Of a DNA stretch of 64,000 bases, positions 1-59,724 are shown in pieces. The notes beneath the pieces are model-generated. The model saw only the letters and a program-made list of their open reading frames with translations, was not told the DNA's origin and ran no database searches. The first letter of the stretch is position 1; each line of letters starts with the position of its first letter. The position numbers and the translations under genes were made by a program. This DNA is from Escherichia coli. Its GTDB lineage: Bacteria; Pseudomonadota; Gammaproteobacteria; Enterobacterales; Enterobacteriaceae. Where the stretch lies: assembly GCF_003334315.1 (NCBI RefSeq), contig NZ_QOWR01000013.1; one strand, 5' to 3'.

Positions 1-1370
1 GCTTATTCCAGGCCTTCCGACAGGCTGATGCCAGTATTTCCCGCCGTCATGGTGGCACCGGGCTGGGGCTGGTGATTACACAAAAACTGGTTAATGAAAT
101 GGGCGGCGATATTTCGTTCCATAGCCAGCCGAATCGCGGTTCAACTTTCTGGTTCCACATTAATCTCGATCTGAACCCGAACATTATTATCGAAGGGCCA
201 TCCACCCAGTGCCTCGCAGGTAAGCGCCTGGCCTATGTCGAACCAAACTCCGCAGCAGCGCAATGCACGCTGGATATTTTAAGTGAAACGCCGCTGGAAG
301 TGGTTTATAGCCCAACGTTCTCCGCGCTGCCTCCCGCGCATTACGACATGATGTTGTTAGGCATCGCGGTGACCTTCCGCGAGCCGCTAACAATGCAACA
401 TGAGCGATTAGCGAAAGCGGTATCGATGACCGATTTCCTGATGCTGGCACTTCCTTGCCATGCACAAGTCAATGCTGAAAAACTCAAGCAAGATGGTATC
501 GGCGCGTGTCTGCTGAAACCATTAACACCTACACGCCTGTTGCCTGCCCTGACGGAATTTTGTCATCACAAACAAAACACGCTTTTGCCTGTAACCGATG
601 AAAGTAAGCTGGCAATGACAGTCATGGCGGTTGATGACAACCCCGCTAACCTGAAACTTATCGGCGCATTGCTGGAAGATATGGTGCAACATGTGGAACT
701 TTGCGATAGCGGGCATCAGGCGGTTGAACGGGCGAAACAGATGCCGTTCGATTTGATCTTAATGGATATTCAAATGCCGGACATGGATGGCATTCGGGCC
801 TGCGAACTCATCCACCAACTCCCGCATCAGCAACAAACGCCGGTTATCGCGGTAACGGCGCATGCAATGGCCGGGCAAAAAGAGAAGCTGCTTGGCGCAG
901 GGATGAGCGATTATCTGGCGAAACCGATTGAAGAAGAGCGATTGCATAATTTGTTGTTGCGCTACAAGCCTGGCAGCGGTATTTCCTCTCGCGTCGTGAC
1001 GCCCGAAGTCAACGAAATTGTGGTGAACCCGAATGCGACCCTCGACTGGCAACTGGCACTACGCCAGGCAGCAGGAAAAACCGATTTAGCGCGCGATATG
1101 CTGCAAATGTTACTCGATTTCCTGCCTGAAGTTCGCAACAAAGTTGAGGAACAGCTGGTTGGAGAAAACCCGGAAGGCCTGGTTGATTTGATTCATAAAC
1201 TGCATGGCAGTTGCGGCTATAGCGGTGTGCCACGTATGAAGAATCTCTGCCAACTGATCGAACAACAGCTACGTAGCGGTACTAAAGAAGAAGATTTGGA
1301 ACCGGAGCTGCTGGAACTGTTGGACGAGATGGATAATGTCGCGCGCGAAGCCAGCAAAATTCTCGGGTAA
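1..1370 (+). CDS. barA: Hybrid sensor histidine kinase BarA, 3' portion (end of HATPase, receiver and Hpt domains); 5' end lies upstream of the window
   Basis: Frame open from window edge to stop at 1368-1370; translation contains HATPase G-box ([13 protein letters not shown]), receiver motif ([13 protein letters not shown]) and C-terminal Hpt region ([12 protein letters not shown]); recognised from memory as BarA C-terminus. Confidence 0.93.
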
Positions 1371-2963: not shown

Positions 2964-4304
2964 TCAATGACGGCCGAAAACGGGACGTTTACGGTCAAAG
3001 GTCCAGCCGGGGATCAGGTACTGCATCGGACCTGCGTCGTTACGCGCACCGCCAGGCAGACGTTTATAGGCCTCATGTGCCTTTTGTACCTGTTCCCAGT
3101 CCAGTTCCACGCCCAGACCGGGCGCATCAGGAACGGCAATTTTTCCGTTTTTAATCTCCAGCGGATTTTGGGTCAGGCGACAATCGCCCTCCTGCCAAAT
3201 CCAGTGGGTATCGATAGCGGTAGGATTACCCGGTGCCGCCGCGCCCACATGGGTAAACATCGCCAGAGAGATATCGAAATGGTTATTAGAATGGCAGCCC
3301 CAGGTCAGCCCCCAGTCGTCGCAAAGCTGCGCCACACGGACTGCACCGGAAAGCGTCCAGAAGTGCGGATCGGCAAGTGGAATATCTACCGCATTGAGCA
3401 TCACCGCATGACCCATTTCGCGCCAGTTGGTGGCGATCATGTTAGTCGCGACGGGCAAGCCGGTCGCCCGTCGAAATTCCGCCATCACTTCACGTCCGGA
3501 GAAGCCCTGTTCTGCGCCGCATGGATCTTCGGCATAGGTAAGAACATCATTCAGCCCTTTGCATAAAGAAATGGCTTCATCAAGCAGCCATGCACCGTTG
3601 GGATCAACGGTAATCCGCGCATCCGGGAAGCGTTTCTTCAATGCACGAACAGTGTCGATTTCTTGCTCGCCAGGTAACACGCCGCCCTTAAGTTTGAAAT
3701 CTTTAAAGCCGTAGCGATCCTGTGAGGCTTCCGCCAGACGCACAACGGCTTCGCTGTTCATTGCTTTCTGATGCCGCAACTGATACCACTCATGGTTGCC
3801 CGGCGTATTTTCCACATAAGGAAGATCGGTTTTGGTCCGATCACCGATATAAAACAGATAACCGAGGACGGTAATAGCCTCGCGTTGCTTGCCTGGCCCT
3901 AACAGTTCGCAGACCGGAACATTCAGCGCCTTACCTAGCAGGTCAAGCAAAGCGGCTTCCAGCGCCGCCACGGCGTTAACGCGTAATTCAAAGGTCCAGG
4001 CACCTTTACCGAAGGTATCAAAATCGGCGGCCTGATTACCTTTATGCACCTGCTGGACCACTTTATTCAGTCGCGCAACTTCCTGGCCCAGAACCATCGG
4101 AATAGCATCGACAAGCGTCTGATAAATCACATCTCCGCCCGGCGCTTCACCAATGCCGGTATGCCCGGCGTTATCGGTGAGTACCACAATATTGCGGGTG
4201 AAATATGCGTTATGTGCCCCACCAATATTAAGCAACATGCTGTCATGCCCGGCCACCGGAATGACTTTCATATCAGTAATAACAGGACTGGATTGTGTCG
4301 CCAT
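2964..4304 (-). CDS. gudX: Glucarate dehydratase-related protein, paralog of GudD, 446 aa
   Basis: ORF 2964..4319; start at [21 protein letters not shown]; high similarity to the adjacent gudD product along the whole length. Confidence 0.93.
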
Positions 4305-4305
4305 C

Positions 4306-6559: not shown

Positions 6560-7342
6560 TTAGGAACTTATCTCTCCATCCTGACCCGATGGCGCACTGA
6601 ACTCAACCCTTTCATTTTCAGGAAGCAGACCGCGCCAGCCAAATTGTGATAACGCCTGCATCCAGGTGTCGTCCAGGCCCGCGTGAATAGTCAGCGGCTC
6701 GCCAGTAAAAGGATGCGTCAATGACAACTGACTGGCATGTAGCATTAACCGCTGGAGGCCAAAATGCTCAGCACCGCTGCGATTCTGGCGTAAATCGCCA
6801 TGTTTGCTATCGCCAATAATCGGATGACGCAAATGGGCAAGATGTCGGCGAAGCTGATGTTTGCGTCCGGTTTTCGGCTCCAGTTCCACCAGGCCGTAGC
6901 GCGTGGTCGGGTAACGTCCGGTCGCTACCGGCATTTCTACGGTCGCCAGACCGCGATAATGCGTCACTGCTGGCTGCGGGCCTTTATCTTCGCGGGCAAA
7001 TTTATCAGCGATTTTGTCCAGTTCTTCCACCAGTGGATAATCCAGCACCGCTTCTTCCATCAACCAGCCGCGCACAATCGCATGGTAACGTTTCTGGATT
7101 TGGTGCTGTTCAAACTGTTGTGCCAGCAGCCGTCCGGCCTCGCTGGATAATCCCATCAACAACACACCAGAAGTGGGTCGGTCCAGACGATGAGCAGTAA
7201 AAACATGCTGGCCTATCTGGTCACGCACGGTTTGCATGACCACTACTTTCTCGTCGCGATCCAGCCAGCTGCGGTGAACCAGCCAGCCGGAGGGTTTATT
7301 TACCGCAACCAGCCATTCATCCTGATAGAGTATTTCCAGCAT
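6560..7342 (-). CDS. truC: tRNA pseudouridine(65) synthase TruC, 260 aa
   Basis: ORF with RluA-family catalytic motif ([12 protein letters not shown]). Confidence 0.92.
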
Positions 7343-7671
7343 TAGCTCGCATCATCCGCAAAAAGAGCATCCAGTTTTTCCAGCTCAGCCAGAATAAGCG
7401 CGCGTTGCGGATGGTCCGTCGCCAGCGCCATTTCATAATAGGGTGCAACGGCAAAAGCGCCCGGTAACGGCTGTTTGTTATCTAACAAATCGTGCATTCG
7501 CGGGATCAGCACCCACTGCAACCACTCCAGTGGTTCCATGGTGTCCATAAAGAACGGTTGGGTACTATTAAATTGATGCGGCTGGGGTTCATCGTTTCGC
7601 CAGTGCTGATGTTCACGCAGTAACGCTTCAAGCGCCTGCAACTGGAGACGAACGCGGTCATGAGTGGTCAT
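7342..7671 (-). CDS. yqcC: DUF446 family protein YqcC, 109 aa
   Basis: 109-aa ORF whose stop region overlaps the truC start by 1 nt; recognised from memory. Confidence 0.88.
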   Translation of the reverse strand: MTTHDRVRLQLQALEALLREHQHWRNDEPQPHQFNSTQPFFMDTMEPLEWLQWVLIPRMHDLLDNKQPLPGAFAVAPYYEMALATDHPQRALILAELEKLDALFADDAS

Positions 7672-7716
7672 AAAGCAACCTCAATAAGAAAAACTGCCGC
7701 GAAGGATAGCAGGAAT

Positions 7717-8082
7717 AAAAAAAGGGAGCACTGTATTCACAGCGCTCCCGGTTCGTTTCGCAGCATTCCAGCTACTTTTGTTGCTCCCTGCTCATCCTTG
7801 ACAACTTTTCCTCTGGCCTTGCGGCCAATCGTTCATCCTGAACTATTGCTTCCTGCTCACACCACCCCGATGTGATACTTCATCCTGAAGTGTCCCTGGC
7901 CTTCCTGACCCACCGAATCATCCTGACCGGTTCTCATTCTCCATCCTGGAGGTGTCCTTTAACGCGTCCTGCGTCATCCTCTTCGCTTCATCCAGAAGCC
8001 TTTCCCTGAAACACCATCCTGGTGTGTCCTGCAGAAGTGTCATCATCCTGATGTTCACTTCGTTGTCTGACTCCCTGTCGAC
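7717..8082 (-). ncRNA. csrB: CsrB small RNA (CsrA-sequestering decoy RNA)
   Basis: Minus-strand transcript begins GTCGACAGGGAGTCAGACAACGAAGTGAAC (plus strand 8053-8082); at least 9 CATCC motifs on the plus strand (AGGAUG / CAGGAUG on the RNA) plus many AGGA variants; ends with GC-rich hairpin 7724-7749 and U-run 7717-7723. Confidence 0.93.
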
Positions 8083-8255
8083 GAAGATAGAATCGTCTTT
8101 TTCGCGAAGTCTTACAAGGCGCTTACAGACAATGCCTTAAGGAAAATTTCATATGAAAGTTAAGAATTAACAATCAACATTTTGATTTTAAATGAAAATA
8201 ACGATTCTTATCTTTTTAAGTATTCGCTTATTTCCTGGCGATCTCCTACAGAGTC

Positions 8256-8273
8256 TGTAAGAGATCTCTCACA
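8256..8273. promoter_or_regulatory. Near-perfect 18-bp palindrome TGTAAGAGATCTCTCACA about 175-190 bp upstream of the csrB start; candidate UvrY (BarA/UvrY) response-regulator site
   Basis: Palindrome read directly; position and sequence match the UvrY-type inverted repeat I recall upstream of csrB. Confidence 0.6.
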
Positions 8274-8292
8274 ACCAGATGGGATATTTGGA

Positions 8293-8838
8293 TTACAGAA
8301 GAGGCTTAAGTTGATTAAGGAATTCCGCAAGATTTGAGGCTAAATGCGTCCGTTTACGTGTTCCCAGCGTCTCTTTGCACACTTCACCGGAGAGATTACA
8401 CACCGAGATGACCTCTAACTCTTCTTCCAGCGTCGCGATAAATAGTGTGGGCGGCAGTTTTAGCCTTTTCTGAGTCACCAGATGACCAATCAGATTTTCC
8501 TGCACCCGACGGAAGTCGTCTTCACTCCAGGTTTGCAGCAATGTCAGTTTGATATCGCCAAACTGCGCGTGCATATCCCCGGCAAACTGAGTCGTATAAA
8601 AGGTATGAATTGTGGGTTGTATCACAATATCAAAAGCGCGTTCAACCGCGTTTACATTTTGTTCCCCGGTAAACGGCTGGGGTTGCCAGTATACGGCATC
8701 TTCGGTAGTTGAAATAATGCACGGTGAAGGAACACCGTACAGTTCCTCACTTAACGGCCAGCTTTTATGCTCTTCATGCCACGCATCGCAGTAGCGTGCA
8801 GTAAAATCTTTCAGGGCTTGTGCGGTCAAATCGTCCAC
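8293..8838 (-). CDS. syd: SecY-interacting protein Syd, 181 aa
   Basis: 181-aa ORF recognised from memory. Confidence 0.9.
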
Positions 8839-26253: not shown

Positions 26254-26459
26254 ACTTCCTGAGCCGGAACGAAAAGTTTTATCGGAATGCGTGTTCTGGT
26301 GAACTTTTGGCTTACGGTTGTGATGTTGTGTTGTTGTGTTTGCAATTGGTCTGCGATTCAGACCATGGTAGCAAAGCTACCTTTTTTCACTTCCTGTACA
26401 TTTACCCTGTCTGTCCATAGTGATTAATGTAGCACCGCCTAATTGCGGTGCTTTTTTTT
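26254..26459 (+). ncRNA. gcvB: GcvB small RNA (Hfq-dependent regulator of amino-acid and peptide transporters)
   Basis: Starts ACTTCCTGAGCCGGAACG 7 nt after TATAGT; GU-rich tract GTTGTGATGTTGTGTTGTTGTGTTTG; ends with hairpin GCACCGCCTAATTGCGGTGC plus T8; divergent from gcvA. Confidence 0.92.
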
Positions 26460-29420: not shown

Positions 29421-29608
29421 GGCGAGGTTATCCCTCACCCTAAACGCATAAATGCCTGATGCGCTACGCTTATCAGGCCTACATAACTCCTGCAATATTT
29501 TGGATTTGCATGATTTGTAGGCCGGATAAGGCGTTCACGCCGCATCCGGCATGAACAACGCGCACTTAGTCAATAATCAGGATGTGAGGTTACCCCTCAC
29601 CCTGTCAT
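29421..29608. repeat. REP/BIME-type palindromic units flanked by an 18-bp direct repeat
   Basis: REP units at about 29453-29481 and 29518-29551; GAGGTTATCCCTCACCCT (29424-29441) and GAGGTTACCCCTCACCCT (29586-29603) flank them, 17/18 identical. Confidence 0.7.
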
Positions 29609-30944: not shown

Positions 30945-31021
<77 letters not shown>

Positions 31022-59440: not shown

Positions 59441-59528
59441 AAAAAAAACCTGCGCATCCGCGCAGGTTGGTGCAAGAGACAGGGTACGAAGAGCGTACCG
59501 AATAATCTCACCAATCAATACCTCTGGG
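59441..59528 (-). ncRNA. omrA: OmrA small RNA (OmpR-regulated, Hfq-dependent)
   Basis: Minus strand reads CCCAGAGGTATTGATTGGTGAGATTATTCGGTACGCTCTTCGTACCCTGTCTCTTGCACCAACCTGCGCGGATGCGCAGG plus T8. Confidence 0.92.
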
Positions 59529-59642: not shown

Positions 59643-59724
59643 AAAAAAAACCTGCGCATCTGCGCAGGCTGGTGTAATTCATGTGCTCAACCCGAAGTTG
59701 ACTTCACCTATCAATACCTCTGGG
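59643..59724 (-). ncRNA. omrB: OmrB small RNA (paralog of OmrA)
   Basis: Minus strand reads CCCAGAGGTATTGATAGGTGAAGTCAACTTCGGGTTGAGCACATGAATTACACCAGCCTGCGCAGATGCGCAGG plus T8; shares 5' seed and 3' terminator with OmrA. Confidence 0.92.

Follow-up and report, generated by a model that had tools for sequence, protein, structure and literature searches.

Introduction

Within a 64-kb stretch of Escherichia coli DNA (hereafter the window, which denotes the whole stretch that was analyzed), the tail of a sensor kinase gene lies a few kilobases from a CATCC-rich interval with a palindrome beside it, and this arrangement raises the question of whether the interval is the small RNA gene csrB, whether the palindrome is the site at which the response regulator UvrY acts on it, and whether the closeness of the kinase gene carries any meaning. 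CsrB sequesters dimers of CsrA by means of GGA motifs and antagonizes CsrA control of translation and mRNA stability. An earlier note, made from the letters alone, had read the interval as csrB, the palindrome as the reported UvrY site and the kinase as BarA, and had called the system well characterized. These readings are examined below by covariance-model search, motif counts, folding and the comparison of orthologous loci.

Identity and Extent of csrB

An Rfam scan of the whole window returned a CsrB (RF00018) match on the minus strand at 7714–8073 with a score of 380.4 bits (E = 1.2e-110), against a gathering score of 71, and the match extends over the full length of the model (positions 1–356 of 356), which supports the csrB assignment of the earlier note. 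In the K-12 MG1655 record, csrB (b4408) is a gene of 369 nt whose start lies 211 bp from the syd stop codon; by offset from the corresponding stop at 8293 in the window, +1 is placed at 8082, the RNA begins with GUCGACAGGGAG, and the start of the Rfam model (8073) falls 9 nt inside the RNA. The 369-nt CsrA-sequestering sRNA is thus assigned to 7714–8082 on the minus strand from the Rfam match, the K-12 annotation offset, the GGA count and the fold. Its neighbors on the same strand, both identified as open reading frames and by annotation, are syd (SecY-interacting protein) upstream at 8293–8838 and yqcC downstream at 7342–7671.

The motif content of the RNA is far from that expected by chance, with 22 GGA motifs (4.5 expected), 14 AGGA motifs (0.8 expected) and 8 AGGAUG motifs (0.1 expected). 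At least nine CATCC motifs had been counted on the plus strand, and there are exactly nine, at 7793, 7834, 7881, 7919, 7942, 7975, 7989, 8015 and 8044; their reading as AGGAUG on the RNA holds for eight, six of which are CAGGAUG, and fails for the ninth, which is UGGAUG. The window-wide rate of CATCC (about 134 per 128,000 strand-bases) would give about 0.3 over the span of these motifs (7793–8048), and the twelve 369-nt segments richest in GGATG anywhere in the 64 kb all fall on csrB.

The predicted fold of the RNA is more stable than those of shuffled sequences (z = −3.85), and in the minimum-free-energy and centroid folds 9–11 of the GGA motifs are placed at hairpin apices and 6–7 more are unpaired. 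The Rfam alignment displays 11 GGA-presenting hairpins and a terminator, the hairpins being free of any flagged non-canonical pair. The intrinsic terminator (7714–7749, minus strand) consists of an 11-bp GC-rich stem (7724–7749) followed by U7, and was recovered by the terminator scan, as an inverted repeat and as the last helix of the Rfam model. Taken as a whole, the explanation that 7714–8082 on the minus strand is ordinary E. coli csrB with its known upstream UvrY site is held with near certainty, and none of the observations made here speaks against it. Binding and sequestration of CsrA are established for the K-12 RNA (PMC4682653), and the gene in the window is the same.

The Palindrome as the UvrY-P Operator

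The plus-strand palindrome TGTAAGAGATCTCTCACA at 8256–8273 is self-complementary at 16 of its 18 positions and lies at −174 to −191 relative to +1 = 8082, with its centre at −183/−182, in agreement with the near-perfect 18-bp palindrome described earlier at about 175–190 bp upstream of csrB; reckoned from the start of the Rfam model (8073) instead, it lies at −183 to −200. At up to three mismatches it is the sole match in the 64 kb (0.03 expected) and also the sole match to TGTRAGN6CTYACA, no further UvrY box being found in the window either at up to three mismatches to the 18-mer or at up to one mismatch to TGTRAGN6CTYACA. The GATC sequence, a Dam site, occurs at the centre of the palindrome (8262–8265), and another occurs in a neighboring third half-site (8240–8243).

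Read on the csrB-sense strand, the inverted repeat is TGTGAGAGATCTCTTACA, the reverse complement of the above, and it equals letter for letter the 18-nt repeat of Zere et al. 2015 (PMC4682653). In that study, the repeat is centered at −183/−182 and lies in the middle of the upstream UvrY ChIP-exo peak, and in DNase I footprints phosphorylated UvrY (UvrY-P) protects only this 18-nt inverted repeat region; moreover, binding of UvrY at csrB in vivo requires BarA and, for optimal binding, IHF, and csrB and csrC clearly exceed all other UvrY targets in strength (PMC4682653). The segment 8256–8273 is therefore the UvrY-P operator already mapped in K-12, and by this identity it would be bound by UvrY-P in the present strain, as the attribution to UvrY had anticipated.

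The Third Half-Site, the IHF-Like Site and the Core Promoter

A third UvrY half-site, TGTAGGAGATCGCC (8237–8250, minus strand), is located 5 bp from the palindrome on its downstream side and has the orientation of the palindrome's promoter-distal half. The repeat search reported a second inverted repeat here (8240–8252 with 8254–8266), which corresponds to the extra TGTAGGAGA half-site that is described 5 bp downstream of the csrB inverted repeat in PMC4682653. Closer to the promoter, an IHF-like site, AATCAAAATGTTG (consensus WATCAANNNNTTR), is placed at 8175–8187 on the minus strand (−105 to −93) on the basis of its sequence and its conserved TCA and TT columns; published work places a putative IHF site between the two regions of UvrY crosslinking and reports that csrB activation depends on IHF (PMC4682653).

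The core promoter would be of a weak sigma-70 type, with TTGTAA (8112–8117) as the −35 hexamer, a 17-bp spacer and GATTCT (8089–8094) as the −10 hexamer (8089–8117 overall, minus strand). A simple promoter scan of 7600–8400 did not find a consensus sigma-70 promoter, so that these hexamers were assigned only by position and conservation; the absence of the consensus is what would be expected of a weak, activator-dependent promoter. On the plus strand, the terminator scan also marked a terminator-like hairpin with a T-run at 8080–8097, overlapping the −10 hexamer and +1, which is probably a chance consensus match, since no plus-strand gene reads into it.

The −35 hexamer is embedded in TTGTAAGAC (8109–8117, minus strand), which resembles the UvrY half-site TGTAAGA, and a second TGTAAG is located at −45 to −40 (8122–8127, minus strand). 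The TTGTAAGAC element is exact in 13 of 16 Enterobacteriaceae representatives and present with at most one mismatch in all 16; it is close in both csrB copies of an uncultured Enterobacteriaceae metagenome-assembled genome (MAG; locus L047) and absent from Erwinia and Pantoea. Of the promoter-proximal UvrY ChIP-exo signal, the published work says only that the inverted repeat is not kept there in full (PMC4682653), and the resemblance of the −35 region to a half-site might have some relation to that signal.

Conservation across Enterobacterales

Orthologous loci were collected from one-genome-per-species contigs by anchoring on the neighboring Syd protein, so that the search was unbiased towards sequences that bear the palindrome. 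Among the 46 loci obtained, Rfam placed csrB directly downstream of syd in 44, with 45 copies in total; the other two are L021, where the contig stops 290 bp past syd, and L050, a Pseudoalteromonas locus whose Syd is 34% identical and which yielded no CsrB match, no box and no GGA-rich stretch, meaning that the syd–csrB linkage does not reach Pseudoalteromonas. The csrB-bearing loci span two further lineages and 15 named genera (Escherichia, Citrobacter, Enterobacter, Yokenella, Huaxiibacter, Pluralibacter, Kosakonia, Silvania, Leclercia, Atlantibacter, Cedecea, Siccibacter, Entomohabitans, Erwinia and Pantoea), and the gene order syd-csrB-yqcC-truC is kept in all 44, with yqcA next wherever the fetched flank reaches.

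The conservation of the palindrome, for which the earlier note had suggested a check, held in every copy: the 18-mer occurs within 300 nt upstream of all 45 csrB copies, exactly in 31 of them and with one, two or three mismatches in 9, 3 and 2, respectively. Its start lies 198–201 nt before the start of the Rfam model in 40 of the 45, and the third half-site is kept in every copy. Column conservation, averaged within each block as the frequency of the most common base over 22 aligned representatives, reaches 0.96 for the 18-bp inverted repeat, 0.88 for both the third half-site TGTRRGAGATCGCC and the −35 block TTGTAAGAC, 0.80 for the −10 block GATTCTAT and 0.65 for the region of the IHF-like AATCAAAATGTTG, where the TCA and TT columns hardly vary; the corresponding value is 0.59 for the final 40 nt of the syd coding region together with its trailer and 0.43–0.50 for the remaining intergenic segments. 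Intergenic conservation therefore peaks on five elements only (inverted repeat, third half-site, IHF-like site, −35 and −10), and the value of 0.96 against a background of 0.43–0.50 indicates that the palindrome is under strong sequence-level constraint.

In two Atlantibacter species (L036 and L037) and in copy b of L047, GAGATC is replaced by GATATC in both the left half of the palindrome and the third half-site, so that two sites have changed in parallel. The MAG locus L047 carries two tandem csrB copies, at 3259–3618 and 3945–4305; their RNA sequences are near-identical and their upstream regions diverged, and each copy is preceded by a palindrome, a third half-site, an IHF-like site and a −35/−10 of its own.

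Comparison with Known Systems

Compared with K-12 csrB (b4408), the gene in the window occupies the same syd–yqcC locus and has, by offset, the same length of 369 nt, and the inverted repeat TGTGAGAGATCTCTTACA, the extra TGTAGGAGA half-site and the IHF-like site are identical to those of PMC4682653; no difference of substance separates the two, which belong to different E. coli strains. The best match to the 801-bp csrB region comes from strain RCAD0514, at 100% identity.

Within E. coli, csrC (RF00084) is grouped with csrB in a clan of CsrA-sequestering sRNAs (CL00106), and it was found by Rfam in locus L003 at 2037–2290. It is shorter than csrB (246 nt annotated) and is likewise activated by UvrY-P, through an upstream inverted repeat and, some two helical turns from it, an extra TGTAAG half-site. 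The csrC repeat TGTGAGACATTGCCGATA matches that of csrB at 12 of 18 positions, its right half being degenerate, and the extra TGTAAG stands 16 bp upstream of the repeat, whereas that of csrB stands downstream, in agreement with PMC4682653; in addition, csrC lacks an apparent IHF site, and IHF is dispensable for it (PMC4682653).

The RsmB of Erwinia and Pectobacterium and the csrB of Pantoea (L043, L045, L046, L048 and L049) share the Rfam family, the position after syd, and the inverted repeat and third half-site upstream. However, they score lower against the model (176–219 bits), the distance from repeat to RNA is 167–210 nt rather than about 200, and the −35 region lacks the TGTAAGAC motif. 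Further afield, the Pseudomonas proteins GacS and GacA are the orthologues of BarA and UvrY, and they activate the GGA-rich decoy sRNAs RsmY and RsmZ by way of an upstream palindrome, the GacA box (TGTAAGN6CTTACA), whose outer half-sites are those of the csrB palindrome. Regulation of rsmZ also involves IHF, although both RNAs belong to different and much shorter families than csrB.

Genome Context and Annotation

The 801 bases at 7600–8400 are present between syd and yqcC in all 5426 complete E. coli genomes searched, at 95–100% identity, which identifies the window as E. coli chromosome; in 22 of these genomes, no one match spans 80% or more of this region. In E. coli 1919D62 (NZ_CP046009), a swine isolate, an IS3-family element lies within csrB (L002 1751–2928, at about window position 7989); natural disruptions of csrB therefore exist, as the 22 genomes and this insertion together indicate. 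The csrB interval carries no feature in RefSeq PGAP records, such as NZ_CP034106 (L001 9073–9693), and is annotated in the K-12 record only, so that surveys based on PGAP annotation would miss the gene.

Other RNA genes recognized by Rfam in the window are GcvB (26254–26459, plus strand, 199 bits), the OmrA/OmrB pair (59441–59528 and 59643–59724, minus strand, 96.6 and 86.1 bits) and ES036 (29475–29517, minus strand, 46.5 bits). A single tRNA-Met (CAT) gene is located at 30945–31021 on the plus strand; K-12 presumably carries the tandem metZWV triplet at this locus and, if so, the present strain has fewer copies.

Linkage of barA and csrB

The window opens inside barA, whose 3' part (1–1370, plus strand; codons 463–918 of 918) is recognized from the open frame, Pfam domains and annotation offset, as the earlier note had it. 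The open frame 3–1370 comprises 455 codons and ends at a stop, which coincides by offset with the annotated barA end in both K-12 and NZ_CP034106, a genome whose csrB region is 100% identical to window positions 7600–8400. Pfam finds, in order, HATPase_c (PF02518, 2e-10), Response_reg (PF00072, 1.9e-30) and Hpt (PF01627, 4.1e-15), the first of these matches covering only the C-terminal part of the domain because the window edge, at codon 463, cuts it; the N-terminal membrane sensor, HAMP and HisKA domains fall outside the window. After barA come the convergent genes gudD-gudX-gudP and then yqcA-truC-yqcC-csrB-syd, and 6.3 kb separate the barA stop (1370) from the 3' end of csrB (7714), close to the 6 kb given before, the distance to the csrB start being 6.7 kb.

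Alternative Explanations

Three other readings of these features were weighed, of which one takes the CATCC-rich stretch for a product of chance or coding-related composition rather than an sRNA gene. Apart from the fact that the interval is unannotated by RefSeq PGAP, nothing favors it; no ORF of at least 80 aa was found in 7672–8292, the covariance model matches from end to end (E = 1e-110), the same RNA stands at the syntenic position in 44 loci of 15 named genera, and the K-12 record annotates the stretch as csrB. Its probability is accordingly negligible, a chance compositional feature being excluded by the Rfam match and the 44 syntenic loci. Somewhat less remote, yet still very improbable, is the idea that the palindrome acts as an RNA hairpin (terminator or stabilizer) in the syd 3' UTR, for it starts only 20 bp past the syd stop codon (8293) on the same strand and, as RNA, might fold into a 7-bp stem capped by a GAUC loop. 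It is not followed by a U tract, however, and was not called by the terminator scan; its primary sequence stays nearly identical across genera and shows no compensatory changes of paired bases, which is the pattern of a protein-binding site and not of a structure. Neither the conserved third half-site nor the constant spacing to csrB +1 is accounted for by a hairpin. In L047, the second csrB copy (3945–4305) has its own palindrome with no preceding syd, and phosphorylated UvrY footprints the palindrome DNA directly (PMC4682653). On the missing U tract, the conservation of sequence rather than structure, the L047 copy and the published footprint, the syd-terminator reading was rejected, and the palindrome is retained as the UvrY-P operator.

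A different kind of proposal concerns the closeness of barA and csrB, which could reflect a co-inherited regulatory module and not an accident of gene order. In its favor, the barA 3' end stands directly after yqcA in E. albertii (L007 5350–5541), Yokenella (L025 5260–5523) and Pluralibacter (L029 5279–5527), where barA is about 1.7 kb from csrB and gudPXD are absent between them; the linkage is thus not confined to Escherichia, and in E. coli the gud genes do no more than interrupt it. Against it, these three loci are the only ones that could be scored with fetched flanks of 2.5 kb, most genera being unscorable, and csrC, at a distant locus, lies outside the window, as do uvrY and csrA. BarA, moreover, works in trans by way of a diffusible protein, and hence no mechanism calls for proximity. 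A functionally meaningful linkage is considered unlikely.

Proposed Mechanism

In the circuit envisaged for this locus, BarA, a tripartite sensor kinase, would supply the phosphate of UvrY, and phosphorylated UvrY would bind the inverted repeat at −174 to −191 together with the adjacent third half-site; binding of UvrY to the repeat is known to need BarA-dependent phosphorylation (PMC4682653). The weak sigma-70 promoter of csrB would depend on this activator, and bending by IHF at about −100 may bring UvrY-P, about 180 bp upstream, to RNA polymerase. The resulting transcript displays approximately 22 GGA motifs, of which many cap short hairpins and each mimics the CsrA site of an mRNA leader; by this mimicry, one CsrB ties up many CsrA dimers and relieves CsrA control of its targets.

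A more specific conjecture is that the csrB operator is not a simple dimer site but a fixed array of three half-sites, comprising the inverted repeat, a 5-bp spacer and the third TGTRRGAGATC half-site, which are kept together from Escherichia to Pantoea. This is put forward tentatively and as rather doubtful, and any function of the rigidity of the three half-sites, of the −35 half-site or of the operator GATC sites is speculative.

Significance

The csrB gene, its operator and the barA tail in the window are all already known, and the verdict of the earlier note that the system is well characterized and not new stands; UvrY ChIP-exo, DNase I footprinting and the analysis of barA and ihf mutants are published for K-12 (PMC4682653). 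The BarA–UvrY–CsrB–CsrA circuit is among the best-studied post-transcriptional circuits of E. coli, with an operator mapped at nucleotide resolution, and the call of csrB and its operator from sequence was accurate to within a few bases. What the cross-genus alignment documents is the rigid upkeep of the layout of operator, third half-site, IHF site and promoter in Enterobacterales. If the conjectures above were true, the three-half-site array would be compatible with a higher-order oligomer as the active form of UvrY-P, IHF-bent DNA would put one UvrY-P subunit on the −35 and explain the promoter-proximal ChIP-exo signal, and the conserved operator GATC sites would leave room for Dam methylation to modulate UvrY-P binding.
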